Shown here piece by piece: positions 23,975-59,589 of a stretch of DNA of 64,000 nt (positions within the stretch are counted from its first letter, which is position 1; each line of letters opens with the position of its first letter). Both the position numbers and the translations under genes were made by a program. This DNA comes from Nitrosopumilus sp. GTDB taxonomy: Archaea; Thermoproteota; Nitrososphaeria; Nitrososphaerales; Nitrosopumilaceae. Below the pieces are notes generated by a model. The model worked only from the letters and a program-made list of their open reading frames with translations, was not told the origin of the DNA and did not search any database. The DNA is taken from positions 1,024,001-1,088,000 of the forward strand of contig CBDBLX010000002.1 of NCBI GenBank assembly GCA_965207445.1, written 5' to 3'.

Positions 23975-24123
23975 GTATGAACCAAGCTCTTTGAATACAA
24001 TAATAAAATCACATATCTGTATTTGGTTATATCCTTACTTGAATATAGAATTCTGCATTTGTGCGATGCTTGACTCGGTACTATTTTTTAATGACCATAT
24101 CAGTCATAGAGCTTGGTTCACAC
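23975..24123 (+). mobile_element. MITE family B (copy 3, best-preserved terminal inverted repeats)
   Basis: GTATGAACCAAGCTCT...AGAGCTTGGTTCACAC 16-bp inverted repeat with 1 mismatch; abuts the truncated 5' end of the IS1595 transposase. Confidence 0.85.
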
Positions 24124-31766: not shown

Positions 31767-33274
31767 TGCACAGTATAATAAGTCATCTGAATATACACTG
31801 TGTTGTGAAACGACAAAAAATAATTAACAAACAGACTAGTAAAGATGATCCAATTAATGCGATAATTAGGCGCGTATCTAAAGGCACTGATGAGATGATA
31901 TCAAACCTACAGCAATTGATCAGAGAACCTAGCGTATCTGCAAAAGGGCAAGGTCTAGAGAGCTGTGCCAAAACCCTATCTGATATGTTAATTGGTGCTG
32001 GATTACACTCTGAGATACTATATCTAAATAAATCTACAAATGCAGCTCCACCAATTGTATATGCTGAGATTCTCTCAAAGACAAACCCTACAAAGACACT
32101 CTTATTTTATAATCATTATGATGTGCAACCTGAAGAACCACTTGAGCAGTGGAGATATCCACCGTTTGAGGGTGTCAAAAAAGGCAACAAGGTGTATGGA
32201 CGCGGGGCCATCGATGACAAGGGTGAGATTGTAGCGCGGCTGTGCGCAGTGAAATCATATGTAAAAGAGATGGGTGGTGACATTCCTTGTAATATCAAAT
32301 TTTTGATCGAAGGTGAAGAAGAGATAGGAAGTAATCATATAACACAATACATGAAAAAATATCGTAGAAAATTTACATGTGATGCTGTAATATGGGAGTT
32401 TGGTTACGTTAGTCCTGATTGTCGTCCTATTGTTGGTCTGGGTATGAAAGGTCTAATGTTCGTAGAGTTGAGTGCACGAGGCCCTGTGAGAGATGCACAC
32501 TCTAGTTTGGCCGTACTGATCAAAAATCCTGCATGGCGGCTTGTGCAAGCACTACATGCGATACGCAGAGAAACTGACGGGCGTATATTGATTCGTGGCT
32601 GGTATGATGATGTCAAAGATCTTTCTGCAACTGATCTAAAACTATTGAGAGCCGAGCCGTTTGATGAGGAACAGTTCAAAAAAGAGTATGGTATACGCGA
32701 TTTTGTAGGTGGTGTACATGGTATGGCTGCTAAAAAAGCACTAGCTGCAACACCGACATGCAATATTGCAGGTATAATATCTGGATATACTGCTAGTGGT
32801 GCCAAGACAGTATTGCCTGCTATTGCAACAGTCAAACTTGACTTTAGATTGGTTCCAGAAATGATTCCTCAAAAGCAGTTTAAGTTACTCAAAAAACATC
32901 TCGCATCGACAGGTTTCTCTGATATATGTGCGACCATGCTACATGCTGAATCTGCTGCTAGAACTGATCCTACAAATCTGTTTGTTTGTAATGTTGCAGA
33001 TGCCGCTGAGTCGTCGTTTCAAGCTACTCCAATACTAAATGTGTCGAATCCTGCAACGGGTCCAATGTATGCGTTTACTCAAGTATTGGGGAATATACCA
33101 TGTGTGTCAGTTGGTGGCACTCATGTCTACTCTAAGATACACTCGCCAAATGAGTTTGCACGAATCGATCTTTTGAAAAAGACTGCCAAATGTATGTGCT
33201 ATGTAATAGATAACTTTGGCAGGTTCTCTTCCACGCAAGAAAAACAACTTAAAGACAAAGTGCCGTATTGTTAA
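31766..33274 (+). CDS. M20/DapE-family metallopeptidase
   Basis: YNHYDVQP, GRGAIDDKG, EGEEEIGS, HSPNE; true start may lie slightly downstream. Confidence 0.9.
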   Translation: MHSIISHLNIHCVVKRQKIINKQTSKDDPINAIIRRVSKGTDEMISNLQQLIREPSVSAKGQGLESCAKTLSDMLIGAGLHSEILYLNKSTNAAPPIVYAEILSKTNPTKTLLFYNHYDVQPEEPLEQWRYPPFEGVKKGNKVYGRGAIDDKGEIVARLCAVKSYVKEMGGDIPCNIKFLIEGEEEIGSNHITQYMKKYRRKFTCDAVIWEFGYVSPDCRPIVGLGMKGLMFVELSARGPVRDAHSSLAVLIKNPAWRLVQALHAIRRETDGRILIRGWYDDVKDLSATDLKLLRAEPFDEEQFKKEYGIRDFVGGVHGMAAKKALAATPTCNIAGIISGYTASGAKTVLPAIATVKLDFRLVPEMIPQKQFKLLKKHLASTGFSDICATMLHAESAARTDPTNLFVCNVADAAESSFQATPILNVSNPATGPMYAFTQVLGNIPCVSVGGTHVYSKIHSPNEFARIDLLKKTAKCMCYVIDNFGRFSSTQEKQLKDKVPYC

Positions 33275-33275
33275 T

Positions 33276-34001
33276 ATGGACGGTCTCACTACACTGAAAG
33301 CCGAGGACAAGTGGCTCCTGGTCATTGTGAACCTGCTTCCGTACGTTGAGGGCAGGACCATGCTACAGAAATTTGGAATGTTGTCATTTTATGAGGTTCT
33401 CAAGGATGAGGAGTTTTTTGACGACTGGAGGCCTAGCCATTATGGCGGATACAGTCCCAGACTAGCAAACAGCCTGAAGCGCCTGAAGGCGGACGGTTAC
33501 GTCCGAGCCGACAAAGTGACTGTCGAGCGCGACTATCAGGTCAACAGGTATTCGTTAACAGAAGCGGGTAGACGCGCAATAGCAGAGTTCGAAACCGATT
33601 CGTTGCGGCTTGAAAAAATAAAAACGATTCTGTCTCACTATTTCACTCGGACACTGAATGATCTCTTGGCAGATGTGTATCAAAGATATCCCGAACTGGC
33701 GGCCAACAGTAAGATTATTGCAGACGTAAACAGGACTTTGGATCCCAGCTCACGTATGGAACATGAATCCGAGACCGGAATAGGAGAACAGTCAAAAACA
33801 ACCTGCATGACGATCCCTGCACACCAACATGTACTTGGAGATATAGACTTTAGGGAAAAACTGGCAAAATCCATAGGACTGGACAGAGTCCCGGATCTGG
33901 ATCCGCAGGCCTTTGATCGTATCCAAGGAATCCTGTCCGAGCACATCGGCACGGATCACTTTGACGCCGTGGAGGCGGTCAGGGAAGTGAGGGATTGTTG
34001 A
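33276..34001 (+). CDS. Panacea/YwgA-like winged-helix antitoxin-like protein
   Basis: GRTMLQK...W.P..YGGYS..L...YSLT..G; paralog of 54200-54946. Confidence 0.7.
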   Translation: MDGLTTLKAEDKWLLVIVNLLPYVEGRTMLQKFGMLSFYEVLKDEEFFDDWRPSHYGGYSPRLANSLKRLKADGYVRADKVTVERDYQVNRYSLTEAGRRAIAEFETDSLRLEKIKTILSHYFTRTLNDLLADVYQRYPELAANSKIIADVNRTLDPSSRMEHESETGIGEQSKTTCMTIPAHQHVLGDIDFREKLAKSIGLDRVPDLDPQAFDRIQGILSEHIGTDHFDAVEAVREVRDC

Positions 34002-34230
34002 AAAAATCATATCTGGATGCCAACATACTGATTGCCATATCTGTGGGCCCTGACAAGGAACGCGATCAGTTCAAGATGGCCAGAGGGGTGTTGAACGATA
34101 TCAAAAACGGCGTGATCATTGGAATCGTGTCCTCCTTGGTGTTGATGGAGGTGATCTCCGTCATGCGCAAGCAGAAGGTAAGGAGGTAGTGGGTCATTTG
34201 GATTCGATGTCACTCGAGGAGCAATCCAAG
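33995..34230 (+). pseudogene. PIN/VapC toxin, truncated
   Basis: YLDANILI...SSLVLMEV, stop after 64 aa; overlaps the upstream gene's stop. Confidence 0.75.
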
Positions 34231-34288
34231 TTTGTGTTGCATGAGAAAATTAAAAAAAATATTAAAAAATAAATTTTTGGTGTATATA

Positions 34289-41507: not shown

Positions 41508-41655
41508 GTATGAACCAAGCTCTTTGTATACAATAATAAAATCATATATCTGTATTTAGTAACATCCCTGCTTGTATATGGAATCCTGCATCTGCGCGAC
41601 GCTTGACTTGGTGCTATTTTTAATGACCATATCAGTCATAGTGTTTGGTTCGCAC
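41508..41655 (+). mobile_element. MITE family B (copy 4)
   Basis: GTATGAACCAAGCTCT...TTGGTTCGCAC; closest to copy 3. Confidence 0.85.
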
Positions 41656-43892: not shown

Positions 43893-45349
43893 ACGACAAC
43901 CAACCCTCAATCAAATCATCTGCAAAGCAAAAAATTGATAGTAATGATGAAAACAATAACAACACCCTTCACTTTAACAGCATAATACACGAACTACTTT
44001 CAAATAGGATGGGTATTGCGGGAATCGCCATTTTAGCTACACTAATCGTGATATCACTTGTCACCATTGTAGTTATTCCTATTGAGACGTTTCAAGAGTG
44101 GAACAATCCAAAAAGTTGGATATCATACCCAAAAACTGCTGTACCTGCATGGGTGAATACAGGCCTTGGTGAAAAGATCCCAGAACACTTGATATTTGAT
44201 ACTCCTACATCAACTTTTGTACAACATACAGATGCCGTCACACAAACAACACATGAATTTCTTATACATTATAATTATGATGACTTTCCAAATGACTTTA
44301 TCTATAGTTTTTTAACACAATATGAAGGATCACCGCTTGTTCAAGTTTCAATTACTAGACCTGATGGTCATACTATACTACTGCTCTCAAAATCACTCCC
44401 TTTTTCAGATGGTGTCATATCACACTCGGAGCGAATATTTTCAACTGACAATATAATAAAAAAAAATGTAATGCTTCAGTCACATGTATTTGAATACGAT
44501 ATATCTGATATGCCTATTGAAAATGTCGTATTTGCAGCAGACATGTATGAAAACAACAACAACAATAGTCCTGATGTCCTTCAGGGAACATACACACTAC
44601 ATGTGAATTTTTACAGTATCTCTGATGATCTAAATGTACACGAGTCACAATTGATAGTTGGTGGTAAAGCGTTTGGATTGATGGGTACTGATGAACTAAG
44701 ACGTGATCTTGCAATTGGATTATTGTGGGGAACGCCTCTTGCGTTATTCATCGGAATTACTGTTGCAGTAGCGTCTGTTATGGCGGGGCTTTTGTATGGG
44801 GTTTATGCAGGGTATAGAGGAAAAAAGACTGATGAGGTGATGATGCGATTTAATGATGTCATATACGCATTGCCTGCACTGCCATTTCTTATTATACTGT
44901 CTGTTACGGTTAGTAATAGTATACTGTTAATGATTGGATTCTTGATGATATTTGGATGGGTCGGTGTGGCAAAAGTTGCACGAAGTATGTCATTGCAGAT
45001 TAAGACTCGTGGGTATGTGGATGCTGCTGAGATAATGGGCCAGAGACGATTTATAATTATAACAAAACATATAGTTCCACAACTATTACCTTATGCATTT
45101 GCAAGCATTGCAATATCCGTTCCAGCTGCAATCACAACTGAGGCAGGACTCAGTTTCCTTGGACTCGGTGATCCTAGTTTTCCAACATGGGGGCAAATTT
45201 TGCATGATGCAAACACATTTGGTGCTGCTGCGAGAGGATTGTGGTGGTGGATGATGCCGCCTGGCGTTATGATTGCGATTACTGGCTTGGCCTTTGTATT
45301 TATTGGAAATGCTCTTGATAATATTGTGAATCCAAAACTTCGGCGCTGA
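43889..45349 (+). CDS. Peptide/nickel ABC permease (DppC/OppC-like)
   Basis: GTDELRRD, EAGLSFLGLG, WG..L, NPKLR. Confidence 0.92.
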   Translation: MNDNQPSIKSSAKQKIDSNDENNNNTLHFNSIIHELLSNRMGIAGIAILATLIVISLVTIVVIPIETFQEWNNPKSWISYPKTAVPAWVNTGLGEKIPEHLIFDTPTSTFVQHTDAVTQTTHEFLIHYNYDDFPNDFIYSFLTQYEGSPLVQVSITRPDGHTILLLSKSLPFSDGVISHSERIFSTDNIIKKNVMLQSHVFEYDISDMPIENVVFAADMYENNNNNSPDVLQGTYTLHVNFYSISDDLNVHESQLIVGGKAFGLMGTDELRRDLAIGLLWGTPLALFIGITVAVASVMAGLLYGVYAGYRGKKTDEVMMRFNDVIYALPALPFLIILSVTVSNSILLMIGFLMIFGWVGVAKVARSMSLQIKTRGYVDAAEIMGQRRFIIITKHIVPQLLPYAFASIAISVPAAITTEAGLSFLGLGDPSFPTWGQILHDANTFGAAARGLWWWMMPPGVMIAITGLAFVFIGNALDNIVNPKLRR

Positions 45350-45616
45350 TCTTATGTATGTAATTATTTTATTGTAAAGTATATTATTATTAACATATTA
45401 CTACTATTAACATATTATTATTAACATATTGCTATTAACATATTATTAATATTGTTGATAATAACAAATACTGGAAATTATTTTTGTAAAAGCTGTACCG
45501 TCTGTACCAATTCATAAATTAATTATCAAATTAACTGACAAAGTATTCCTTTACAAGCAAACAAATCACCACACTAGCATACTTGATCTGAAAGTATGCT
45601 TTTTGCCAAATTGCTT

Positions 45617-45976
45617 TTATTCAAAGTTATATTCACGTATTATAGATATTGCATTATCACTTAATCTAATAGTATAATTTCTTGAATTTGGGTCTGTCTC
45701 TTTTGATTGAGCTAGCGTTTCTGTAAATGCCGTCTTTTTTTCATCAACTGCACCTGATTCATGTGCACACAAGTTGAATGCTTTGAGATTTAGATTTTTT
45801 TGTAACATATGTTCGATGAATTTTTTATATGCTGTGGGGTTATCCCATGACACGTTTCGTTCATTACATGCTGCTATCCAGACATCCACAGAGTTGTGGA
45901 ATGCCACTTTTTGGCGTAAATCTTCTAATTGCATTAAAAATCTGCCCGTTGCATCTTTGATCCACATCTTGGACAT
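45617..45976 (-). CDS. Hypothetical protein
   Basis: 119-aa ORF, host-like, coupled to the upstream gene. Confidence 0.6.
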   Translation of the reverse strand: MSKMWIKDATGRFLMQLEDLRQKVAFHNSVDVWIAACNERNVSWDNPTAYKKFIEHMLQKNLNLKAFNLCAHESGAVDEKKTAFTETLAQSKETDPNSRNYTIRLSDNAISIIREYNFE

Positions 45977-46260
45977 GTACCGCCTTTGTGTTTGTGGTTA
46001 CACACTAAACAGACATACTTGATTCCACCTGAACCTGTTTGTGAGCCAAGTCCAAAAAATCCACCTCTTCCATTATCTGAACTAGATGATCTATAACCCC
46101 GCATACGGTTTGCGTATTGGCGCCTAAGTAAAAGTGGAAATGCTATAAACAGACCAATGGCAACTACAAGCCCGATTGGAAATGGTAGTATTATCTGTAA
46201 TACAATACTTACTGCAAGGGATGCAAATAAAAATACCAAATATTTTTTGTAAGAAAACAT
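45934..46260 (-). CDS. Two-TM protein with C-terminal zinc ribbon
   Basis: Two hydrophobic helices then CLVC...CPRC. Confidence 0.7.
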   Translation of the reverse strand: MFSYKKYLVFLFASLAVSIVLQIILPFPIGLVVAIGLFIAFPLLLRRQYANRMRGYRSSSSDNGRGGFFGLGSQTGSGGIKYVCLVCNHKHKGGTCPRCGSKMQRADF

Positions 46261-46374
46261 AAAACAATTTTACTTGAAACAAGTTATAAAGTTTGTGTCG
46301 TTGTGAATGTTGCTCAAAAATATAAGATCATGTTAAATTTATGGTGTGCAATATTAACTCTTACTATATTGTTC

Positions 46375-46455
46375 GTAACCGTTCAACCCCCGTATCTGCA
46401 CCAGAAGTTAGACGATGAATCTGTGCCTAAATTTGAGAAGGGGTTGAACGGTTAC
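46375..46455 (+). mobile_element. 81-bp MITE family A with perfect 16-bp terminal inverted repeats (IS66-type GTAA ends)
   Basis: GTAACCGTTCAACCCC...GGGGTTGAACGGTTAC; marks the left edge of the GC-richer island. Confidence 0.9.
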
Positions 46456-46627
46456 CTACCTTCGATCAGTCTGTTTTAAATAGACGATAGCGCAACATAT
46501 TACATGTCAAATAAGCAAGTTGAAGAGATTGAAAAAGACGTGAAAGATCTGTTTTATAGGGATCAGGAGTTGCCCCAGCCATACGCAGTACCTGTTCCGA
46601 TAGGCGACGGGATAAAGACTGGCAAGC

Positions 46628-47191
46628 CTAGGCCTCCGCCCGACGATCAAACCTGAAGTGTTGTCGTAGTTTTGTCATCATGCCCGGAATCTTCCGGCTC
46701 AGGTATACTTCGTGCTCGTCCATCCACTCATAGTACTGGTAGGCCTGTTTCGGCACCGAACCGTCGGTCTGTTGATCCTGCATACGCTTCGCGTTGGCCA
46801 AAAATTCGTTATGCATTTTTATCCGCTTGAAGATGTTTTGCGTGGGTTGCTGTAGATTTGGTTCCAGAAAATTGATTTTCCCAGAGGAGATCAGACTGTC
46901 GTAAAAATCATGATTTAGATACTTGCTCATGAAATACAGGGTTTTCTTTCCTGAACGGCCTTCCATGTCCACACGACCAAAATTTTTAGGAGGTTTGTCA
47001 TAGTCCAGACTGCGTAGCGTGTCCCAGAGCTCAAGATACAGGTTTTGAGACGCCCGCATCTTTTCGCTGTTTTTGTCCTTGAAATGCTTGTATGCAGATA
47101 TGAACACTGTGAGGATTGTGGCAACTGCAGCCGCGCTGCCCAGCAGGTTGTTCTCTATCAGGTTGGAGAAGATCCACTAAATAGGTTCCAT
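46628..47191 (-). pseudogene. Single-TM hypothetical protein with in-frame TAG at codon 5
   Basis: MEPI*WIFSNLIENNLLGSAAAVATILTVFISAY... is in frame with ORF 46628-47107. Confidence 0.55.
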
Positions 47192-48103
47192 GTATGTCTT
47201 TATGCCAAGAGCAGTTTATGAACATGACGATCAGGTGGATCTGCTGGCGTGCAACAGTCCATGGCCGATCCCATCATTTACGCGCAGGAAAAATACCGTG
47301 CAGCCACAAGTATGAAAAAAAAGGATGAGGGATATTGTAAGCGTCCCGTTTCGCTTTCTGTCGTCATCACAGGGAACTAGAACCCACTGCGGGTTTTACT
47401 CCCTTTAGACCCGCTCACCCATAGGGTTCGAGTCCCTTTTTGCCGCCTGCTCTAGTACGACCTTGCCGTTTGGCAGCACGCCTATGAACCTACAATTCTG
47501 CGTCATGATAAGATGTTCTGCAGTGTCTGCATCTGCAACTAGCTGGCTATTGCTGCAACCTGACCTGTTATCTTGCTGGTACGTTGTAGTACCTCTAGCA
47601 CAAGGTCAAGCTGCTCCGGTGTTGCACTCTCAATTGCCGCCTGGGCCTGTCGCTTGTTCTCTAGCAGGTGGTCTGCATTGTCGGCCTGGTCCAGAAGATC
47701 TTTTGATCGTCCAAATGCATCTCGCGAGGTTGGTGCGTAATTCATCAAATTGCCACCTGTATCGCACTTGCAAAGCCATCTGCAAATATCGCCAGAGTTT
47801 TATGTGCATATATTTAATAAGCTCATATATAAAAGTATCTGCGCGTATACCAAAAGTGACTTATAGGGGCATCCCAATTGAATAATTGTGATGTCACCAA
47901 AGGGGATGCTAAACAACGTTGACTAGCCAATGTTATCAACGTATCGTTTGTGAAGTGCGGTAGAACGACGACATATGGTGGGTTGTCACAACATACTATG
48001 CTACACAGAATGACACCCATTACAATGCATGGTTTGTGATGAATGTGGTGTCTGCTTGTTGTTTGTGTAAATTTAGTGTGTGGGTTTCAAATAAGAACAA
48101 ATT

Positions 48104-48502
48104 ATGGAGGCAGACCGTACAGTGACAGATCAGCACAAGCGACGCGAAGGTTATTGGACGTATTACGAGCAGGCACGTAAATCTGAGCAGGATTTTATGC
48201 GCAAGATATGGTTGTCGGCGATACGGAAAAACCCACATCCGTGCAAGGAAAAGAAGACAAATAGGGGATGTAAGCCTGTACACTCGCGTGACAAGATGGA
48301 TTTTTTGTATCTTTTAAAAGTTGCAAAAAATATTCCTTTTCGTGACGTGATAAATGATCTTGTACATATGTATGATGAATGGGTTGACGAGACGAAGCCT
48401 GATTATAGTTGGGTAACCAAACATATGCAAACAATTGATCTCGATTGGCTTGATTCTATTTTGGCATATGCTGCCAATATGTGTCTAACTGAACTTAAAA
48501 AA
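48104..48502 (+). pseudogene. Transposase N-terminal region (IS5/ISNCY-like), truncated by a family A MITE
   Basis: W..Y..A, RG.KP and PDYS motifs; frame runs into the MITE (...KVLNGY). Confidence 0.6.
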
Positions 48503-48583
48503 GTAACAGTTCAACCCCCGTATCTGCACCCGAAGTTAGACGATAAATCTGTGCCTAAATTTGAGAAGGTGTTGAACGGTTAC
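48503..48583 (+). mobile_element. 81-bp MITE family A
   Basis: About four mismatches to 46375-46455. Confidence 0.9.
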
Positions 48584-48852
48584 TAACAAAATATGATCAC
48601 AGGTCAATTAGTTGAGTAATTTTCTGACCAGATGCAAAAAATAATCAAACATGTTTTCAACATTTTGGGCACTTTCTCACATATCGTGTTTATCATTTAG
48701 ATTTATGTAAATTCGATCACAGTAATGATCGGTGATCGCTGTTGCTGTGTCTGTATACATACTTACAGAATATGGGTTTAACTGTTACGTGGATGGAGGC
48801 GTTTTGATTTAACACCCTAACGTTAAATTATTTCAACTCTGATCAAATTTTT

Positions 48853-48921
48853 TAAACCAAAATTATCACAGTATATAATCATAAGAATTTAAGTGTCCAC
48901 TTCAAAAAGCAAAATAGTTAC
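48853..48921 (+). repeat. GTTAC-terminated repeat family F (copy 1)
   Basis: AATTTAAGTGTCCACTTCAAAAAGCAAAATAGTTAC identical to the end of 55542-55617 and similar to 52675-52710. Confidence 0.85.
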
Positions 48922-48927
48922 AAAAAT

Positions 48928-49611
48928 TTAGAGTGCTGATGCTACCTTTGTCAGGTCTGACAATGTATAGGCAGCAGAGATCAGCTGTATTTGGGTCCTG
49001 TCGTCATAGAAGATCAGCTTTGATATTCTTCCGTTTTCAGGATCCCCGTCCACGCCAACGGCATCAAAACCGTTTACCACGACACTCTGAGTGTGGGGAC
49101 GTTCCCGCAGGACATCCGTGCGCCACTTTTTAATGTCAAAATCATCGTGCACTCTGTCGTACAGTATGATGATCCCATGAGAGTCCATCACGTCTCCAAA
49201 CGTCTCGAGTTTGTTGTAGTCTATGGATTCCGGTCCGTAGATCACCGTGGCCAGTCTGGCCCTTTCTGATGCGGTTCCCTTGGTCATCAGTGCCTTGACT
49301 TCCAGACCGGCCGGAAGTAGCGTGGACTCTGTTACCTTGTAATGCGTTTTTGCGGATAACTCCTCTACATTTGGATACGTCATTCCATACATTTTTTCCA
49401 GCTCAAAGGAGTACGGCACTTTGGCGGCGGCAAGCGACTCGGAGTATTTTCCAAGATACGGTAGGTCTTGCGCCTGCGACGCGTCTTGCACCCAGGCAAA
49501 CCCGGCGCTGGTAATTCCGACCGAAACCGCCAGAGATATAACCAGAGTTTTTTTCAGCAAGTCTCGGACCCTCCTACGCCAACCTTGATGTTTTTGTAAG
49601 CGGGCGTACAT
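48928..49611 (-). CDS. Exported hypothetical protein
   Basis: Signal-like segment LVISLAVSVGITSAGFAW; about 50% GC by eye; start probably near 49557. Confidence 0.65.
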   Translation of the reverse strand: MYARLQKHQGWRRRVRDLLKKTLVISLAVSVGITSAGFAWVQDASQAQDLPYLGKYSESLAAAKVPYSFELEKMYGMTYPNVEELSAKTHYKVTESTLLPAGLEVKALMTKGTASERARLATVIYGPESIDYNKLETFGDVMDSHGIIILYDRVHDDFDIKKWRTDVLRERPHTQSVVVNGFDAVGVDGDPENGRISKLIFYDDRTQIQLISAAYTLSDLTKVASAL

Positions 49612-50272
49612 TGGGTTATGAACCCGCCATTTGTGTCGTATTCTTCATCGTTGTATGTCCAGTAACTCCACCTGGAACCGTCATGCACTTTGATGTACTT
49701 TACGTCTGTCTTGGGAACTGACGTATCGTCATCTATGGATTCAACCCCAACGACCACATCTCCGTAAGTACTATTCATGATGAGACCGGCTCGTTTGTTA
49801 CCACTTTGATATGCATGCCACTTCATATCCTTGTTCGTGTCTGATATTTCATAGTATATGTTCTCAGACGGGATGACGGATCCGCTCAGTCTATGTTCGT
49901 AATAATTGCCATCTTGCATGTATGCTACGTAGTGATGTTCTTCGGAGTTATAGCATATTTCATCTATTTGTCCTGATGCCACTCCGATCTCTATCCAGTC
50001 ACCGTTGGGAAAGAGAACCCAAGTGGCTACCAGCGAGAATCCATCGCCGTTTGGCGAGCATGAATCTGATGTTGTCATGTCGGGAACCGTCACTCTTGCT
50101 TTGACGCCTGATGCACTAAATGATTCTGTGCTGTGGATCTCTTGAGTTCCGAGGCATTTCCCAAACCAGCCCCAGTATCTTCAGCAGAAGTCGAGCTGGC
50201 CGAGGGGATCAACACCACTCCCAACAGGATTGGAAGCACGGTCAAGATTGTTTTTGTGCGTTTTGCAGTCAT
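49554..50272 (-). pseudogene. Secreted Cys-containing beta-rich protein, frameshifted near 50180
   Basis: Signal-peptide ORF (50090-50287) and body ORF (49554-50093) join with one added base: ...SAE/RYWGWFGKCLGTQE... Confidence 0.6.
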
Positions 50273-50483
50273 TGCACACCCTTGCACCCTGTGTTATATA
50301 ATGAGGTCTACCCAGATCTGGAGTGCCTTTTGGTCATTGGGTCTGAGAGATTGGTGTCTAATTCCGATCCACAGGTAAGATCCTTTCTTTCAGAAGATAT
50401 TCACAGAACTATTTTCGATTTACGCACCAATCCCGGTTTTCCCAATCAACATTTATTGATCTGTACAAGTTCGCTTCACGTTG

Positions 50484-50967
50484 ATGAAGAAGAGAAAGAA
50501 GCATTTTACATTCAGATTAGATGAGGATTTGTACGATGAATTGGAGATGGAATCAGAAAGAAAAGACATCACACCACCCATGCTGATGGACAAACTAACC
50601 AAAAACCATCTGACACGTGACAAATTTTTTGACGAGTTAGGATTTATTCCAGTATCCACGGACTGCCTTAAAGTCATCCTAGAAAAATTAGATGAAAAAA
50701 TGCCGAACTTGATGGCGAGAGCATCAGCAACACCAAGATAGGGGAATACGTCACTTATTTCTATCATAAAAATGATAGAACAGCTTGTTGATTTTTCTGG
50801 AATTGTACCTTTCCACCCCGAAGATTCAGAAAAGAGAACAACAATGGCACTGTATCGTACACTATACACCACATTAACAAGAATTACTCGTTGTTCTTGA
50901 AAGGAATGCTGTTTGGCGCCATAGAAAAAACGTTGAAGACAAGAGGAGTAAACCTAGTGGATAGTGA
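50484..50967 (+). pseudogene. Ribbon-helix-helix regulator-like gene, frameshifted
   Basis: HFTFRLDEDLYDELE N-terminus; continuation in other frames; ends at a family C fragment (50968-50991). Confidence 0.55.
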
Positions 50968-51332
50968 TTTCATTAAAGATCCGATAGTTTTTACAGGCGA
51001 TTTCGGCTAGGCAGGAGGGTATGGAGTGGAAAAATAAACGTAATTGGCACTATGTGTAGCAGATACCGTGTGGTGGCCAGAAGAGAGACGAGGAATTGGG
51101 TGTGTATGTCAGTGGCAGGTATTGGGTAACTTTTGATCATTTGGTTGAATTAATTTGACCTTGAGTGTCAAAAGTCGATGTGGCCATTAGTGTTTAATGA
51201 ATCCCCACAAAATGGTACATCGACTAGTATTCGCCGATGCCATATTTAACGACTCTGCAGGCAGATCGTCTTGTGGCATCGACGAGGTGCGTATTTTTTG
51301 AAGACAGCCTATGTAGAAAGAGGGGACGGGTT

Positions 51333-51616
51333 CATGCCCGACGTGTCCCTGGAAGATCTAAAAGCCGCCTACCGCAAAGAGCCTCCGGGCAAGTCCCGGG
51401 ACAGACTGCAGGCAGCAGTTGGGCGAAAAAAGGGCAAGAGTGAGTCTGCAATAGCCGCCCAGCTCGGACGCAGCCAGAGCGTCATATCCGAGTGGTTCAA
51501 CAGGCTACAATCAGAGGGCTTGGAGGGCAGATATGACCGCAAGAGCCACTGGCAGGCCGTGCAGACTCACAAAAGAACAACAAGAACAGGCAAAAGCCGA
51601 TCTGAGTAGAGAGCCG
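51333..51616 (+). pseudogene. IS630-family transposase HTH fragment
   Basis: RLQA...IA..LGRS...I..W..R...EGLEG..D, then GRPCRLTKEQ after a frameshift. Confidence 0.75.
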
Positions 51617-51844
51617 ATGCATAATAGTTTCATTAAAGATCCGATAGTTTTCTAATATTTTGTATTCATAATATGTGCTCAACTTCGAGATGAATATCAA
51701 TCAAAATATAGGATCTTTAATCATATTAGTATGCATAATAGTTTCATTAAAGATCCGATAGTTTTCTAATATTTTGTATTCATAATATGTGCTCAACTTC
51801 GAGATGAATATCAATCAAAATATAGGATCTTTAATCATATCAGT
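51617..51844 (+). mobile_element. Tandem pair of 114-bp MITE family C units
   Basis: 51617-51730 equals 51731-51844 with 1 mismatch; each has ATTAAAGATCC...GGATCTTTAAT inverted repeats. Confidence 0.9.
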
Positions 51845-51925
51845 ATGCACAATACGTCAGATCATCACGATGCGTCACTCACGGTGCGGGGGAAGGTATA
51901 TTGACACTTGGCGGTGACACAAGCC

Positions 51926-52480
51926 ATGGCCGTAACATACACCGAGAGGATAGGTAACATCTTTGTTGACAGGAACAAGAGATGTGGCGCGGGCGCCGAT
52001 GACACTGTCATTATCTCCAGGACATCCATGGCAGAAGGCAGGCAGGCTGTCCGGACAAAGGCAGGCAGGCAAGCAGAGATCCGGCTCAGGCGCGGCATCG
52101 CACTGCGTCACGGGGACATACTGGAAGGTTCGGACCCGGCAGCCAAAACTGCGAGAAAAAGGACGCTGGTGGTAAAGCAGGCCCGTGAAAAGGTCATACT
52201 GGCAAAGTTTCTTGCTTGGGATCCAACTGAAAACTATGATCTTTATTACAACCTGACGTATGAGACGCCCCTGCAGGTGGGCCACATACTGGGCGAGATG
52301 CGCAAGCCCCTCTCGATCAGGAAGGACGGGGATGCGGTCTCGTTTCCCATACGAGACAACTCGGAGCTCAAAGAATTTGAGAAAAAGATCCGGGGGGTGA
52401 GCGGCGACGTGGAGGCCGAGATCACAAGAGAAGTATTCATAGAGGGACTCCTAGACGAGAGCCACTACGGGGATTACTGA
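51926..52480 (+). CDS. ureE: UreE-like urease accessory protein, orphan
   Basis: R....T..G....I.L.RG..LRHGDIL...VV.Q..E.V...GH.LG...P pattern. Confidence 0.7.
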   Translation: MAVTYTERIGNIFVDRNKRCGAGADDTVIISRTSMAEGRQAVRTKAGRQAEIRLRRGIALRHGDILEGSDPAAKTARKRTLVVKQAREKVILAKFLAWDPTENYDLYYNLTYETPLQVGHILGEMRKPLSIRKDGDAVSFPIRDNSELKEFEKKIRGVSGDVEAEITREVFIEGLLDESHYGDY

Positions 52481-52674
52481 CAGGGACATTTCCTAGGATG
52501 CGGCCGGCTTGGGTGCCTGACAGGATGCGCCTAAGGCGGACTCCCGCGCATTGGAGTGCCCTGGCGGCAGAGGATCATATGCGGCGGCATGGGCGCGTAA
52601 CCACGGCGGCGGGCGTCTCTCGTGTGGACCGTCCGCGCACCATGCCCACTTCAACCGCGTTTTCAAGAGAACCG

Positions 52675-52710
52675 AATTTAAATGCCCACTTTACAAAGCA
52701 AAATAGTTAC
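52675..52710 (+). repeat. Repeat family F (copy 2, diverged)
   Basis: AATTTAAATGCCCACTTTACAAAGCAAAATAGTTAC. Confidence 0.75.
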
Positions 52711-53012
52711 GACTGAACCGTGATCTGAGATGCACTTTACAACGCCCGTCCCGATGCCAAGTCCAACTTTGAGCATGCATTTAGACGTCTCATCTGCATA
52801 TAAGGGCAAATTCTGCGAGAATGCAAAAAACAACTGGGCACACGGTCGCCTACTTGTCAGTCTGGCAGATCTCACGTGTTTTTAATGATCATAATTCAGT
52901 AAACAAAAGATATATCAAGATCCCACACTATACATTATCATCGGTAAAGGAGGACCGTGATGGTTCGTCGAGCTCGTCTTTGATCTCGCCTTTCCGGACA
53001 TTATTCTCATTA

Positions 53013-53795
53013 TCATACCCACTTGTCATAGCTTGGTATGACATACGGCTCATACGCAATCTTGCCGTCTCTGTCAAAGAATCGCTCTATCTGCCTGAAC
53101 CTGTTACTCTTCTGCCTTTCAAAATGGCCCCAGATCGTCCTGCTGCATACGTCAACCAGTTGAATTCCAGGACTCATCTCAGAGGGAAACATGTGGACTG
53201 CGTTCAGTACTCTTTCCAGCCTGTCTTCTGCCACAAACGGGAGTCCACTTCTTTGGGTGCGCCTTCTTTCCTTTCAATTCATGGATCAGATGCCTCACTT
53301 CTTTGTCTTTTTGTGTTCATCTTCATCCACAACCACTGATCCCACGTGCTGTCCACGTTCCAGATACATGGAGAATCTGCGAATCGTAGACCTCATTGCA
53401 AATATGCGGGGGCTGTATATGTTATCATAATATACTTTTTTCATATGTGCCTTGTTTATGACAGTTGCAAAAATCACCGGGTTTGACGATGAAATTATAT
53501 CAAATATTTTATCGGAGAGTTCCTTGCGCTGCCAATCTTCGAGATGTGAAAACATGTTCGTGCCAAAAATTATGTCGTGATAGTTAATCTCATAATGCCT
53601 TTTTGGCATATTCTCGTGCTTACGTTCCGGAACAAATTCTGCCAACAAGTCCCTGACATTTTCAGACGCCTTCATATCTGCCTCTGGTTCCAGAACTAGG
53701 CCTGCCTGCACGTACCACTTTACCCTGCTTTTTCCAAACGGCGGAGGCCAGCCGGTGTCGCCTGTGGCATCCAGATAGATTGTCTTTGCCGCCAG
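53013..53795 (-). pseudogene. DUF3800-family gene, frameshifted
   Basis: IYLDATGDTG start and S..SPGIQLVD.C C-terminal motif lie in different frames. Confidence 0.75.
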
Positions 53796-54199
53796 TTAGT
53801 TCACACTCCGAGACCTTTTGTCATCTGTTGATTTCATACAGACATCTGCAGTGGATACTGGGGTATCAAGACGCCACCCCGATCCTTGCAACGGCATGTT
53901 CAAGCTCGTATCTCTCTTTCTTTTCCCTGCGCAGTACAGCATTGTACTTGTCTAAGTCAAGGTACTTGTGTGTATGTTTGCAGTCAGTATGCCAACAATA
54001 TCACCTAGTCTGCACGATACTAAATACTCACACAATACCTGATATCACCAAATATGTGTGCCATATTTTTTTGACCTGCTTGCAACAGTAACACATCAGT
54101 CCCGCATGATAACAGCAGCCATTAGAGTATGGAAGGTGCCAACGATTAATGCAGTAGAATCCTCAGAAAAAAACAATTTAAAGAAACGGTTACCATGAT

Positions 54200-54946
54200 A
54201 TGGGCATGGGAAACAAGCCATGTTTGAAAATAGAAGAAAAGTGGCTTTTGTCAATTATAAATATGTTTACATATATTGAGGGAAGGACGAGACTGCAAAA
54301 AATTGGACTGATCTCTTTTTTTGAAGAACTTCAAGACGAAGCATTCTTTGATGACTGGAGGCCATACAAATACGGGGGATACAGCCGCCGCTTGGCGGCC
54401 AGTCTAGCACACAAAAAATTGGACTGGAAGAATCGGGGCACATCCGATCCGATGAAGTGCTTGACTGTACAGGACAGTGTTTGCAGATATTCGCTGACCG
54501 AACTAGGACGGCAAGAAATCGGGGACTTTTCTAGAATGAACGCATCAAAGATCAACGACCTAAGACAAACCATATCATATTACCAGTCACTTCCATTGAA
54601 AGAACTTTTGAATGCAGTTTACCAAAAATACCCACACCTTACAAAAAACAGTGAGATTATTGCAGACGTAAACAAGACCACGGATCTCAATTTGCACTCT
54701 GTATACGAGCCCACTGATCCGCCCCGATCAGGACCGTCAGAAATGATTCCCGCGTCCCCTCCAGCAGACCGGCACGTATTTGGAGACTTGGATTTCAGAG
54801 AAGAGCTGGCAAAATCCATCGGGCTGGAGGGGGTTCCGGACTTGGATCCGCGGTCCTTTGATCGCATCAAGGGATTGTGGTCCAAACGAATGGGCGCGGA
54901 ACCGTTTGATGCCGTGGAGGCGATCAGAGAAGTGAGAAGTTGGTAA
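54200..54946 (+). CDS. Panacea/YwgA-like antitoxin-like protein (paralog of 33276)
   Basis: GRTRLQK...FDDWRPYKYGGYS; shared C-terminus DFREELAKSIGL..VPDLDP..FDRI.G...FDAVEA.REVR. Confidence 0.72.
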   Translation: MGMGNKPCLKIEEKWLLSIINMFTYIEGRTRLQKIGLISFFEELQDEAFFDDWRPYKYGGYSRRLAASLAHKKLDWKNRGTSDPMKCLTVQDSVCRYSLTELGRQEIGDFSRMNASKINDLRQTISYYQSLPLKELLNAVYQKYPHLTKNSEIIADVNKTTDLNLHSVYEPTDPPRSGPSEMIPASPPADRHVFGDLDFREELAKSIGLEGVPDLDPRSFDRIKGLWSKRMGAEPFDAVEAIREVRSW

Positions 54947-55497
54947 GAAAGACATACCTTGACTCGAGCATACTGCTCCCTGATGGTCGGTCCAGAAAAG
55001 GAATCAGACCAATTCCGAATGGCCACGGGAATCCTAGGCGAGATCAAAAGCGGCAAGATCGTGGGGGGTTGTGTCTCCACTGGCACTGATGGAGGTGGTG
55101 ACTGTTTTGCGCGTGAAAAAAGGCCGGGAAAAACGCATTCTGGACGAACTACCATTCGATGAACGGCTCGAGTACATATTGCGCGAAAGCAAGTAGATGC
55201 ATGATGATTTAAGCGGAGTTGGTGCGGATGCCACACCTGAAATTCGAGCAGGGTGGAAGACGCATGGATGCGGGCGCCATCATGAGGAATGCCCTGGATA
55301 TCCTGCGTGGCACCACAGGAAAGTTACAGTGTGGAGGGAATTCCATGTTCCGGGGGGTGGGGCCTGCAGACGTGATTCATGCCATGCTGGCAAAAAGAGC
55401 AGGTTGTGACGAGCTGGTGACTTTTGATACGGGCTTTGAAGAACTGCACACGTTTGACGAGTTTGAGGACTTGAAATTTCGAGTCATGAAATGGTAA
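54940..55497 (+). pseudogene. PIN/VapC toxin, multiply frameshifted
   Basis: YLDSSIL, STLALMEV and ADVIHAMLA...LVTFD..F pieces in different frames. Confidence 0.78.
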
Positions 55498-55541
55498 ATC
55501 TCATTTTGCTTGCGACAAACGGATTCACTGCGTTTATGCGC

Positions 55542-55617
55542 TAAACCAAAATTATCATATACATATATACATAATCATAAAAATTTAAGTGTCCACTTCA
55601 AAAAGCAAAATAGTTAC
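55542..55617 (+). repeat. Repeat family F (copy 3)
   Basis: Near-identical to 48853-48921. Confidence 0.85.
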
Positions 55618-55663
55618 GGGGAAAGGAAGAAACATACACACATAACATACACAGGTCACTTAT

Positions 55664-56755
55664 ATGCCAGTTTTAATATGGCAGAGTAAAATGACAAATA
55701 AGCGCATGAGAATAACATTCATCCATCACATCAACGATAAATTTTATGGTGGGCGACACTTTGATAATACAAGTTACGAATTTTTGGTGCGGGCGCTATC
55801 GGAGCATCCGGATGTAGAATATACAAAACTTCCGATATCCGCTGAGTTTGATGCCACCTGCCTAAAGGATAAGACAGATGCAGTGATTCTGTCTGCTATA
55901 CGTGACTACAACATACCAAAAATTACCGGTCTAAAATCATTGGATGTGCCAGTACTCGTAAAGATCGGAGACTTTCATGACTCAAAGAGATATGGTACGG
56001 GCGCAAAAAACTATGACGATTGGGGTGTTGATTGTCTGTTTAATTTTATGTCTTCTCGATATTTTTATGACTGGTATCCAGATCACATGAATTACAAGAC
56101 AATATTTTTTGGAGTTGAGCCGTCCTTGTACAAAGCACCAAAGTCATATGATCAACGCATCAAAGATCAGATACTGGTTAGCGGCGCTGCGGATCATGTG
56201 GATCCACTTGCATACAGAATGCCATACCTAAAGTGGCTTCCACGTCACATGCGTTATTCTATAAAAGATAAACTAATGTGGTTATTACGACTGAGAGAAC
56301 CTAATGTTTCCATGTATCAAAAGATCATGTACCCGATACACACAGCGTACCATTTTTACAAATTAAGGACGGACTGTAAGTTGTTGCCATATGTTACTGA
56401 TCAAACAAACCTTGCCAGTGACATGACGTACCAACAGTTGTTGTACACCTATTGTGGAGCAATTGCGGCCACTACATTCTACCCTACTATAAAATACTGG
56501 GAGATTGCAGCTGCCGGCTGTCTTACGTTTATGGAGATTACTAAACGTAATTATGGCAACTATCTAGGATTTCGTGATGGTGTCAACTGTATAGTAATAA
56601 ATGAACACAACTACCGCGAAAAGTTTGAAAAATTCCTTGATAATCCTGATTCATATGTTGGTATTGCTGATATGGGCCGTAAATATGCCCTAGAGAACTT
56701 TAGTAATGACGTGGCAGCGGACTCTCTTGTTTCATTAATTAGTGAGTTTGCATAA
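55664..56755 (+). CDS. GT-B glycosyltransferase (CgeB-like)
   Basis: KYWEIAAAG.L...GF.DG.N...IA..GR...L.N C-terminal domain. Confidence 0.75.
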   Translation: MPVLIWQSKMTNKRMRITFIHHINDKFYGGRHFDNTSYEFLVRALSEHPDVEYTKLPISAEFDATCLKDKTDAVILSAIRDYNIPKITGLKSLDVPVLVKIGDFHDSKRYGTGAKNYDDWGVDCLFNFMSSRYFYDWYPDHMNYKTIFFGVEPSLYKAPKSYDQRIKDQILVSGAADHVDPLAYRMPYLKWLPRHMRYSIKDKLMWLLRLREPNVSMYQKIMYPIHTAYHFYKLRTDCKLLPYVTDQTNLASDMTYQQLLYTYCGAIAATTFYPTIKYWEIAAAGCLTFMEITKRNYGNYLGFRDGVNCIVINEHNYREKFEKFLDNPDSYVGIADMGRKYALENFSNDVAADSLVSLISEFA

Positions 56756-56892
56756 CTTGTTCAACTATGTGACTATATTATATGTTGGCGTTTAGACAAA
56801 AATTATTTGAGCGTACACCTGCCGCTACTATTAAAGCGATGTTACAAATATTGATAAACCTTTTTAAGCAAAGTATATTGAAAGTTGACATA

Positions 56893-59151
56893 ATGAACCG
56901 TTTAGCAATTATTGTTATATTTATGATGGCTCCGATTCTCATCTCCGGCACGCACTTTAATTCAACTATGGATGCATTTGGTGCAAGTAAAGATGTTTGT
57001 GGATTGCAACTCTGCTCTGAGCTTGAGGATGAACAAAGCACACCTGATATTTCATCCCACGACAATGACTCTGTACAAAAAGACAACATTGTAGACATTG
57101 CAACAATTAGTGCATCACTTTACAAAGGGTATTATGATGATCGTTCTGTATATTATGTCATAACTGATAGTAGTGATCTTACACACGCACAGATAATTAG
57201 TGAGTCTCAAAAAACCCAAGTGAGTTTTACGCCCTCATTGAGCATGATATCTGATGAATCTACTCCTGCAGCATACATGTTTACAAATGGTGTACGTGGT
57301 GATGGCATACATGGATTCCAAAATGAGGTGTTTACAGTCACGCCGACTATATCTCGTACTTTTTCTTCTCTAGTTGATGCTTTTCACGTAACGTGGAATA
57401 ATGATGTATTACCAAAGATACTAACTTCTGAAAATGACATAATGATTGCAAAAGATAATGGCGATGTAACTATAACAAATATTGATGTTGTATTGAATGT
57501 ACCTCAGTTTAAGATTACTCCTGTTCAATCTACAATGTTAGATAGAATGACTGAACGCCTATTGACACTTCCTCTCCACTATGGGTATCATGACGGAAAA
57601 AAGGTATATGGTCTGGTGTTGGATTCTAGTGATGAGCAGCTTGCAAATATGATAACAGTTTTACAAAATTTTGAATCCAATCGTGCACCGCTACTTGCAA
57701 GTAGCATTGATTCATCCTCAAAGGTATTTGTATTTACAAATGGAATTAAAGGACCTGGACTAGAGGGATTCCAAAGACAAGTCTTTACTGCTGCTGTATC
57801 TGATGAGGGATATTTGCCACTTTTGTCACCTGTATATGTGACGTGGAATGATGGTTCTACTCCTGAACTTTTTACTTCTGAGGATGAAATTATGATGGCC
57901 GCTGAATCCGGTGATGTTATGCTAACTGATTCAAATATTGTAATTAACATGCCTTTACTTGTTATTACTGATGAGCAGTCTGCCTTACTACCGGCAAATT
58001 TTGTATCGTCTGATGATGCTGTTTCACCATTTGTGATAACTGATGACACAGAGATGATGACGGACAAACCCGGTACCTCTGATGACACAGAGATGATGAC
58101 GGACAAACCCAGTACCTCTGATGACACAGAGATGATGGACACCCCCAGTACATCTGAGGACTCAGCGACACATGGTAATGATGTGCCCCCTACCCTAAAA
58201 CTTGCCCGAGCAAGTGTTTCTGTGGATATTCCATTGCACAAGGGATATTACAATGGTGGTGATGTTTATTACATCATTACGGATTCTAGTGATAAAACAC
58301 ATGCTGATGTAATTACTAAAAGTCAGGGTTGGCAGGTTGAGTTAGCACCTTTCCTTAAAAATGCACCTGATAAAGCACTATCTCCAACATACATGTTTAC
58401 AAATGGAATTCAAGGTGATGGTGTTCATGGATTCCAAAGCGAAGTTTTCACAAGTACTCCTGAACAATCCGATGTGTATAGCGCCCTTACTTCTCATGTC
58501 CATGTCACGTGGCACAACGATGTGACCCCTCGCATACTCGATTCACAAGATGCAATATTAGCTGCTGCAGATGCAGGCGATGTGTTACTAACTGACATTG
58601 ATGTGGTGATAAATATGCCTCATATTATGTGGCCTGGTGGTCAAATGATGATCAAAGATGACAAGAATGTACATGATGAGACGCCATATGGTGGAGGACA
58701 GATACTTGATATTGATACTGAGAAAATGACAGTAACATTTGTAGCTCATAGAGGATGGGGACCACATGGGCAAACTGCGTACTATATAGTAACTGATGCA
58801 ACTCCGAGTGGACCTGCTAATGCAATGGGTGTTGTAGCGGCCGATACTGCGGCTAGCTTGATTGTTAATTCTGCTGCTGTTGATCTGTATCAATTTACAA
58901 ATGGTATTTCTGGTCCAGGACCGTTGGGATTCCAACCAGGTATTGCAAGTTCAACTTTGGGTGACGCTGGATATTCTCCAATGTGGCGTATATACTTGAT
59001 CACGTGGAACAATCCTGATGATGCACGACTGTTGCAAACTGTATCTGATATTAACTATTATATGGATCAAGATATGATAACTGTGAATCTTGCACGTCCT
59101 ATGAATAGCGATCATATTGTAAATTGCCCATTTATTGATCCGTTCCAATAG
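56893..59151 (+). CDS. Large exported repeat protein with four related domains
   Basis: Signal peptide; repeated GYY.G..VYY.ITDSSD...FTNGI.G.G..GFQ...V.W...N.P modules. Confidence 0.8.
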   Translation: MNRLAIIVIFMMAPILISGTHFNSTMDAFGASKDVCGLQLCSELEDEQSTPDISSHDNDSVQKDNIVDIATISASLYKGYYDDRSVYYVITDSSDLTHAQIISESQKTQVSFTPSLSMISDESTPAAYMFTNGVRGDGIHGFQNEVFTVTPTISRTFSSLVDAFHVTWNNDVLPKILTSENDIMIAKDNGDVTITNIDVVLNVPQFKITPVQSTMLDRMTERLLTLPLHYGYHDGKKVYGLVLDSSDEQLANMITVLQNFESNRAPLLASSIDSSSKVFVFTNGIKGPGLEGFQRQVFTAAVSDEGYLPLLSPVYVTWNDGSTPELFTSEDEIMMAAESGDVMLTDSNIVINMPLLVITDEQSALLPANFVSSDDAVSPFVITDDTEMMTDKPGTSDDTEMMTDKPSTSDDTEMMDTPSTSEDSATHGNDVPPTLKLARASVSVDIPLHKGYYNGGDVYYIITDSSDKTHADVITKSQGWQVELAPFLKNAPDKALSPTYMFTNGIQGDGVHGFQSEVFTSTPEQSDVYSALTSHVHVTWHNDVTPRILDSQDAILAAADAGDVLLTDIDVVINMPHIMWPGGQMMIKDDKNVHDETPYGGGQILDIDTEKMTVTFVAHRGWGPHGQTAYYIVTDATPSGPANAMGVVAADTAASLIVNSAAVDLYQFTNGISGPGPLGFQPGIASSTLGDAGYSPMWRIYLITWNNPDDARLLQTVSDINYYMDQDMITVNLARPMNSDHIVNCPFIDPFQ
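58040..58160. repeat. 39-bp in-frame tandem repeat (SDDTEMMTDKP.T, about 3 copies)
   Basis: Directly visible. Confidence 0.9.
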
Positions 59152-59412: not shown

Positions 59413-59554
59413 GTGTGAACCAAACTCTTTGGATACAATAATGAAATTACATGTATTTTGTCACATCCCTGTCTGCATGTCAAGTATTGTACATGCGATG
59501 AATTTGGTTAGGAGTTATTTTGAATGATTATATCAGTCATGGATTGACTCACAC
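59413..59554 (+). mobile_element. MITE family B (copy 5)
   Basis: GTGTGAACCAAACTCT...GATTGACTCACAC. Confidence 0.8.
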
Positions 59555-59589
59555 CTTTTTACTATACTTTTGATTAATGAGTGCAATGT

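Follow-up and report, generated by a model that had tools for sequence, protein, structure and literature searches.

IS66-family ends and decaying cargo genes in a genomic island at a synteny breakpoint of Nitrosopumilus sp.

Organization of the Island and Identity of its Ends

The island analyzed here is a stretch of ~10 kb (positions 46375–56765) within a window of 64,000 nucleotides from Nitrosopumilus sp. (GenBank assembly GCA_965207445.1, contig CBDBLX010000002.1, here C2). The window corresponds to C2:1024001–1088000, and positions without a contig name refer to it. The genome had a size of 2.6 Mb and was 96% complete; the assembly was repeat-rich, with 5.5% contamination and a second haplotype contig. 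A sequence-only reading had described the island as cassette-like blocks of unrelated cargo divided by co-oriented ends reading GTTAC. These ends were shown to be the termini of three IS66-family insertion sequence (IS) elements of this genome, namely MITE A (an 81-bp miniature inverted-repeat transposable element) and the elements B and F (Table 1). All six ends listed as such (46455, 48583, 48788, 48921, 52710, and 55617) were present in our catalogue of IS66-type ends, which were dispersed by hundreds over the genome (365 in total, 353 of them on C2). The catalogue returned 0 false ends in a 600-kb shuffled sequence, and it was incomplete by 8 further IS66 remnants without identifiable terminal inverted repeats (TIRs) and by one missed GTAT-type family.

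The ends 46455 and 48583 are the right tips of complete MITEs, whose left tips read GTAAC (46375 and 48503) and point the opposite way; both copies are two-ended, not one-sided. Between 48503 and 48921 the elements form a nest in which F was cut by B at base 133, and B was cut by MITE A at base 205. Two other candidate ends were rejected. The weak end at 54193 was a single copy in the genome and absent from the catalogue; its sequence, TTTAAAGAAACGG, lay in a TATA-like, promoter-type stretch that was conserved upstream of the homologue in the relative G058 without GTTAC there. The sequence TAACTTGTTCAAC (56753–56765), taken for a left end of the MITE A family at the stop of the last gene, was the stop codon plus 3′ untranslated region, conserved behind the glycosyltransferase homologues in the relatives G112 and G142.

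As had been noted from the sequence, no 8-bp target duplications were visible: exact 8- or 9-bp partners were found nowhere for any island end, and the one-mismatch matches were AT-rich and far away. No target site duplication (TSD) partner matched at the ancestral neighbor loci (C2 ~940 kb and ~1844 kb). The lack of an intact recombinase was also borne out for the island, where no intact transposase was found and all transposases were broken.

Table 1. Features of the island, with positions in the window.
Feature	Position	Strand	Remarks
MITE A copy 1	46375..46455	.	81-bp IS66-type MITE, 16-bp TIR GTAACCGTTCAACCCC, no TSD; left synteny breakpoint
Cargo block with transmembrane (TM) protein	46456..47313	-	+ strand open reading frame (ORF) 46502–46657; membrane-anchored ORF of 159 amino acids (aa), 46628–47107
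Low-copy repeated segment, function unassigned	47314..47724	.
IS5/IS4-like 5′ half	47725..48502	+	DDE_Tnp_1; at least 21 copies have the stretch; cut by MITE A copy 2
MITE A copy 2	48503..48583	.	IS5-like element on left, IS66 B on right; joins two unrelated sequences
IS66 B left end	48584..48788	-	First 205 bp, 90% to intact copy
IS66 F left end	48789..48921	-	First 133 bp, 90%; cut by B
Secreted-protein gene pair	48922..50333	-	Frameshift in first gene near 50177; second gene complete (227 aa)
Ribbon-helix-helix (RHH)/CopG-like regulator and broken partner	50442..50961	+	86 aa; 79% to G137
IS630-like 5′ half	50962..51621	+	Helix-turn-helix domains by Pfam; family presumably IS630, from protein pattern
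Two tandem 114-bp MITEs	51617..51850	.	~60 copies genome-wide; terminus common with IS630-like element
ureE-like block	51846..52673	+	UreE_N; ends in IS6-type terminus GGTTCTCTTGAAAACGCGG on - strand
F left-end stub	52674..52710	-	37 bp, 89%
Actin-like gene stub (ALP_N, ParM-like)	52711..52806	-	First ~22 codons; cut exactly at F end
DUF3800 gene	53013..53795	-	Break near 53297; G102 has an intact homologue of 261 aa
Toxin-antitoxin-like pair	54200..55497	+	Winged-helix-like protein intact (248 aa), PIN gene broken; 67% to G058
F left-end stub	55542..55617	-	76 bp, 87%
Glycosyltransferase	55664..56755	+	Glyco_trans_1_2, intact, 363 aa; no IS end behind

IS66-Family Elements and MITE A in the Genome

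The ISBst12 group of the IS66 family, as defined in ISfinder, has a single ORF without the accessory gene TnpB and generates an 8-bp target duplication. The assignment of the GTAA-type ends to IS66/ISBst12 agreed with the termini, TIRs and cognate transposases: the elements of this genome have GTAA termini, TIRs of 16–24 bp and one DDE_Tnp_IS66 ORF. This domain (PF03050) had 46 matches in the genome and lies between matching ends, each IS66 element carries one long ORF, and TnpB (PF05717) was not found in the genome. Five element types were delimited (B, B2, Cc, D, and F). Intact transposases with matching ends, for which a search had been proposed, were found outside the window for B (2.13 kb, TIR GTAACAGTTCAACCCC, 9-bp TSD, frames of 557–562 aa; e.g., C2:333082–335208) and F (1.9 kb, TIR GTAACTATTTTGC, 8-bp TSD, open frames of 495 aa; e.g., C2:164677–166581). 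B2 is broken, and its TIR is identical to that of MITE A. The TSD is 8 bp for F, Cc, and D, as in the ISBst12 group. The differences from that group are the 9-bp duplications of B and MITE A, the size of the elements here (1.9–2.5 kb), and the two thirds of MITE copies that are rearrangement joints in this genome. The group name ISBst12 is in use for the IS66 family (PMC8024623).

Genome-wide mapping, as suggested earlier for the end families A and F, resolved F as the 1.9-kb IS66 element and A as the 81-bp MITE with 16-bp TIRs (173 BLAST matches, 126 full copies). Among these 126 copies, 21 had exact 9-bp TSDs, 4 exact 8-bp TSDs, 11 had one mismatch, 5 had two mismatches, and 85 had none; as a control, random flank pairs agreed with at most one mismatch in 0.075% of draws. 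The copies had a mean pairwise identity of ~81%, and MITE A folds into a hairpin (z about −6); the F stubs do not fold. Element B is likely to be the mobilizer of MITE A, judging by sequence, because the two have the TSD length and 15 of 16 TIR bases in common. MITE A showed no orientation bias genome-wide (36 of 79 neighbors alike vs. 39 expected, 80 copies paired), and in a bacterial survey the IS66 orientation bias was at most weak (PMC3971601). In the 150 genomes of the genus that were scanned, MITE A gave 1 weak match.

Rearrangement Joints, Nesting and Clustering of Ends

On C2, 263 of 353 ends had no local TSD partner. Where the flank of a MITE copy maps to a known repeat, that repeat resumed across MITE A in 0 of 35 TSD-less copies (43 flank tests) vs. 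4 of 10 copies with a TSD (Fisher p = 0.0014), and therefore the TSD-less MITE A copies are taken as rearrangement joints. Reciprocal partners among orphan ends occurred at about chance level (exact 9-mers 2 vs. 0–1; one-mismatch 8 vs. 4–13), which fits deletion rather than inversion. Such one-sided deletion may be due to intramolecular transposition or to recombination between copies, two routes that are inseparable by sequence alone. For replicative elements, the loss of flanking repeats by intramolecular transposition has been described (PMC7986276).

The outer flank lay inside another IS66 element for 15 of 353 ends, representing 14 events, and 13 of these events were located 49–295 bp from the host end. 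DNA at this distance makes up 36% of the sequence covered by IS66 (p = 1.5e-5, with five reference elements); the test has some circularity, since short remnants are a product of the events themselves. F entered the left end of B at three distinct sites, with identical orientation each time. AT-richness was not supported as the cause of this subterminal targeting, the contrast in GC being small (0.36–0.46 vs. 0.40–0.47). A search that mostly lay outside the subscription literature yielded no study on subterminal targeting by IS66 or on archaeal composites with IS66.

The clustering of ends in the island exceeds chance: only 6 of 2478 windows of 10.4 kb, in three regions, hold at least 8 ends, and the island is among them. 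Among the 9 clusters of the 71 solo ends, no other has four consecutive ends on one strand. The signal of the 5-mer itself was weak, with 13 GTTAC and 9 GTAAC on the + strand of the island vs. ~7 expected per strand. In nested elements, every right tip reads GTTAC and every left tip GTAAC, whatever the element orientation; co-oriented GTTAC ends would thus arise without a special mechanism if the left halves were lost. Nesting accounts for part of the co-orientation, as 48583, 48788, and 48921 belong to one nest. General co-orientation of neighboring solo ends was not established (p = 0.046 for 10 of 13 when the island is included; p = 0.17 for 7 of 10 when it is left out). The three F stubs of the island have no derived change in common, and on this account separate F copies are weakly favored as their origin; the 37–133 aligned bases, a weak test, lent no support to local duplication of one F end.

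Junctions and Read Evidence

Ten junctions between non-IS blocks were counted, and an IS66 end was present at only four of them. MITE A stands between the core and the TM block, and an F stub between the toxin-antitoxin pair and the glycosyltransferase. The junction of the small repeat and the secreted pair holds the IS5-like half, MITE A, B, and F, and that of the ureE-like block and the actin stub holds an IS6-type end and an F stub. The RHH/ureE junction is occupied by the IS630-like half and the two 114-bp MITEs. No IS end was found at the junctions TM block/small repeat, secreted pair/RHH, actin stub/DUF3800, DUF3800/toxin-antitoxin, and glycosyltransferase/core. Ends of the IS5, IS630, and IS6 types delimit other island blocks. 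Two ends cut genes, MITE A the DDE_Tnp_1 transposase at 48502 and F the actin-like gene at 52711. No island block was enclosed by facing IS66 ends with an outer TSD.

The read evidence consisted of contigs in all four runs, in which rare forms drop out. Three runs represent one sample, possibly the source, and run X1, from a second study (share 0.06, depth 2–5), covers only pieces of the island. One low-share run carries the label sponge metagenome; in sponge thaumarchaeotes, the transposase load reportedly varies widely (PMC7848895). In run X2 the unique blocks had a depth of 24–30x vs. 28–33x in the flanks, i.e., they were single-copy. Circles of inter-end blocks, for which a check had been proposed, were not seen: among the six joints listed for the run contigs, none was an excision or circle joint of such a block, and no joint of a circular unit of one IS plus cargo occurred in the contigs of 4 of 4 runs, from which rare forms would be missing. 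The read joints 46455>48653, 48921>48598, and 48922>50962 had short sides of 28–44 letters, all repeat; they were absent from the assembly, could not be placed and were left unused. Run contigs with 0 differences spanned the 52710 junction (52398–53852) and the glycosyltransferase-core junction (56529–58069), others tied unique DNA to the F stub at 55542–55617 from both sides, and contigs with 0 substitutions spanned the breaks in the DUF3800 and PIN genes. The island is not a cassette array.

Cargo Blocks and Relatives

In five of five relatives examined, the core genes flanking the island were 10–17 kb apart and in another orientation, and the upstream neighbors of the two core flanks mapped mostly to ~940 kb and ~1844 kb of C2. 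The island sits at a rearrangement or synteny breakpoint with both sides broken; since the core flanks are non-adjacent in relatives, it joins two breakpoints, and no empty site exists. Some part of the island matched in 26 of the 150 genus genomes, with only two candidates scored per genome. The eight long matches were single blocks at 67–89% identity, each in another context and unlinked. An IS66-type end lay beside cargo in one of nine fetched relative loci (DUF3800 in G102), and IS66 transposases within 3 kb in two. The ureE-like block was found together with its IS6-type terminus in G112 (L056:167–955, 89%). The TM block had 78% identity to a block in G102, in which an IS6-type MITE replaces MITE A. 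Cargo modules are thus mobile, and the ends involved belong to several families. In the relative G149 (L060:1685–8697), two same-strand IS66 transposase genes flank a secreted-protein homologue and a core gene.

The labels given earlier to the cargo were mostly supported (RHH-like, UreE_N, DUF3800, PIN, and Glyco_trans_1_2). Six cargo genes were broken or cut: the TM ORF, the first secreted gene, the RHH partner, and the actin-like, DUF3800, and PIN genes. The TM ORF (46628–47107) has an in-frame stop four codons past its likely ATG at 47191, and a longer paralogue of the actin-like stub matches ALP_N. The glycosyltransferase is 83% identical to a gene in G112 that stands among other sugar-modifying genes. 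Other IS debris, which had been overlooked, makes up ~2 kb of the island (47725–48502, 50962–51621, and 51617–51850). A look-alike of an IS5-like right end at 50418–50432 (13/15) was rejected, having neither inner homology nor a TSD. A paralogue of the secreted pair (C2:432.8–434.2 kb) likewise adjoins an IS66 left-end stub.

Several further observations concern these blocks. The TM block has three different left neighbors at nearly one base, namely MITE A, the IS6-type MITE (G102, L057:5206–5352), and a sequence in X1; the latter, left of 46459 in one low-depth contig, was not found in the genome and is a lead only. A leader of ~90 bp at 50230–50345 (- strand), comprising a promoter and an MTAKRTK-type signal-peptide start, recurs with 72–85% identity at 17 other places on C2 with differing downstream sequences, and it may be a swappable export and expression module. 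Three more ureE-like copies exist elsewhere in the genome, and a second copy of the winged-helix and PIN pair lies at 33216–34245, where the PIN gene is broken too. In the likely source sample, a variant of the secreted pair (48922–50333) with ~94% identity and an extra base at 50177 occurred at ~2.5x genome depth, together with a high-depth variant of the glycosyltransferase (56175–56672). Since both high-depth variants are absent from the assembly, this suggests that a co-resident relative has the same cargo.

Elsewhere in the window, a GC-rich (up to 64%) gene at 24688–26367 encodes a surface-type protein of 559 aa with internal repeats and a paralogue at C2:1222755. A DUF7482 protein at 56782–59151 has 789 aa and three domain stretches, vs. 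~420–480 aa in the best matches of relatives. A dispersed repeat family of ~150 bp (1724–1870, 4797–4942, 23975–24123, 41508–41655, and 59413–59556) is probably a further MITE.

Passenger Composites Elsewhere in the Genome

On C2, 532 pairs of ends face each other at less than 40 kb; matching outer flanks were seen for 17 of them vs. 0.06 expected, and none of the 17 was in the island. The 17 pairs were 13 unit IS elements, 2 split or tandem MITEs, and 2 composites. The composite at C2:43250–46685 lies between a B2-type IS66 end and MITE A and has an exact 9-bp TSD; inside are an IS66 remnant, a secreted protein of 273 aa whose leader is that of the island pair, and a 107-aa membrane protein. 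The composite at C2:2172838–2177135 has F ends with an exact 8-bp TSD and encodes a membrane protein of 135 aa as well as a nucleotidyltransferase-HEPN protein. Both insertion sites looked intergenic in a reading-frame check. The former composite was found as a unit in none of the 150 relatives; it also exists on C1:61237–66346, there with an extra IS5-like insertion. A putative further element of this kind near C2:1.80 Mb has inverted repeats of 114 bp, and its flanks agree in 7 of 9 positions.

IS66-type ends do mobilize passenger genes in this genome, because these two composites are flanked by TSDs. Of the earlier proposal that the ends form a reusable gene-capture platform mobilized in trans, the trans-acting transposases and the passenger composites elsewhere thus stood, and a platform in the island did not. 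With their IS66-type ends around passenger genes, both composites resemble tIS66 (e.g., ISPa75-fosZ; PMC12888890), and they also resemble TIME-COMPs, the MITE-bounded composites (PMC13367494). The island differs from both kinds, as it has no facing TSD-flanked pair and thus no demonstrable composite.

Evolution of the Island

We consider it probable that the island results from nested IS66 insertion and one-sided deletion at a synteny breakpoint, and that it is an IS graveyard with decaying cargo. The cargo would have arrived piecemeal by horizontal transfer, aided by elements of the IS66, IS6-type, IS630-like, and IS5-like families. The insertions would have been independent and partly nested, their target being dispensable DNA at a rearrangement breakpoint. 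An end would then attack nearby DNA and delete the intervening stretch, a process that is likely to be transposase-driven and one-sided; it would leave the end against unrelated sequence without a TSD, and only right-hand tips would remain.

Several points weigh against this explanation. The three solo F left ends on the same strand within 6.7 kb are the extreme case in the genome, nesting alone covers only 48583, 48788, and 48921, and solo F right vs. left ends outside the island number about 18 vs. 6. Ends also recur beside some of the cargo: an IS66 left end lies 6 bp (island) and 37 bp (paralogue) past the stop of the secreted pair, an A-like end lies 106 bp past DUF3800 in G102, and the IS6-type MITE of that genome lies within ~5 bp of the MITE A position. 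This recurrence is compatible with module mobility and equally with selection that spares the genes. Recombination between young repeat copies would leave identical TSD-less joints.

The three co-oriented F left ends, spaced by 3.8 and 2.9 kb, might instead reflect accretion via directly repeated F. Circular DNA, such as a plasmid or an excised circle with F and cargo, would repeatedly join a resident F by cointegration or recombination, as do IS26 translocatable units (PMC7986276), and later deletions would trim F to its left end. TSDs are not expected here, the actin-like stub at one F end is from a plasmid-type gene, and F ends form the composite at C2:2172838–2177135. The island resembles the IS26/IS6 arrays of that source in its direct element remnants with unrelated cargo between, the lack of TSDs, and one IS6-type junction end. 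However, its repeats are IS66 and only stubs of 37–133 bp, no circular unit was seen, and no circle joints of inter-end blocks occurred in the run contigs. In addition, the blocks between ends are all mosaics in their own right, containing other IS debris, the stubs lack common derived changes, F right ends are absent from the island, and only one of nine relative loci had an IS66-type end beside cargo; we thus regard accretion as unlikely. The same anatomy would arise if host homologous recombination between repeat copies, not a transposase, had removed the missing halves. At least 126 MITE copies and dozens of IS copies are available for this, and direct copies would yield a single copy without a TSD that connects two loci, as seen at 48503. 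Nevertheless, inversions should leave reciprocal TSD halves, which were at chance level, 81 bp at ~81% mean pairwise identity are a poor substrate today, and a second repeat is missing at the 52711 cut, so this route seems improbable.

An artificial mosaic, misassembled across repeats, is still less credible. The assembly features described above would favor it, the island as a whole is not covered by any single contig, repeats of 81 bp and more are unbridged, and the run contigs are maybe from the source sample and thus non-independent; against it stand the contigs without differences at the 52710 and glycosyltransferase-core junctions and those flanking the F stub at 55542–55617. The attC core of integrons has the consensus RYYYAAC ... 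GTTRRRY. An integron-like array, i.e., a cluster of attC sites lacking integron integrases (CALIN), where a tyrosine recombinase would use the palindromic ends like attC sites, has a negligible probability. The hairpin of MITE A would suit it, archaeal CALINs exist (bioRxiv 10.1101/2022.02.06.479319), and the unrelated small genes, the toxin-antitoxin-like pair, and the palindromic repeats give a superficial likeness. However, no integron integrase IntI was matched in this 96% complete genome, where one weak tyrosine recombinase fell below the cut-off, and the core consensus occurred in 0 of 124 MITE A copies, as did GTTRRRY in 0 of 5 other listed ends. A scan of 45000–58000 with Rfam gave 0 matches at E ≤ 0.5. 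In integrons each site has one promoterless gene, and these genes are mostly co-oriented, whereas the island blocks, of 1.1–3.8 kb, hold several genes and IS debris, and the cargo genes point both ways and carry their own, conserved promoters. Moreover, the F stubs do not fold, and 36 of 126 MITE A copies lie in 8–9-bp duplications, the signature of DDE elements. The integron reading, and with it the proposed attC link of the ends, is refuted by the presence of TSDs and of cognate DDE transposases.

Biological Implications

The island is what an IS burst ordinarily leaves behind, and its parts belong to known kinds. A more speculative view, which we hold to be doubtful, is that IS66 transposases aim 50–300 bp inside other IS66 ends and create one-sided joints there, whereby old ends would become landing pads for successive cargo addition. 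If true, archaea would possess, together with the TSD-flanked composites, a platform for gene accretion driven by transposases, in the role of bacterial integrons. According to a thaumarchaeal survey of 21 genomes in 2019, composite DNA transposons were undetected in archaea (PMC6563490), and the TSD-flanked composites with IS66 ends in this archaeon contrast with that non-detection. The genome provides a large natural sample of IS66 behavior, of which no description was found in the literature searched: two thirds of its MITE copies are one-sided rearrangement joints, 9-bp and 8-bp subfamilies coexist, and nested insertions lie near host ends. Such behavior would help to explain the genome scrambling of this lineage and the spread of surface and toxin-antitoxin genes among related archaea.

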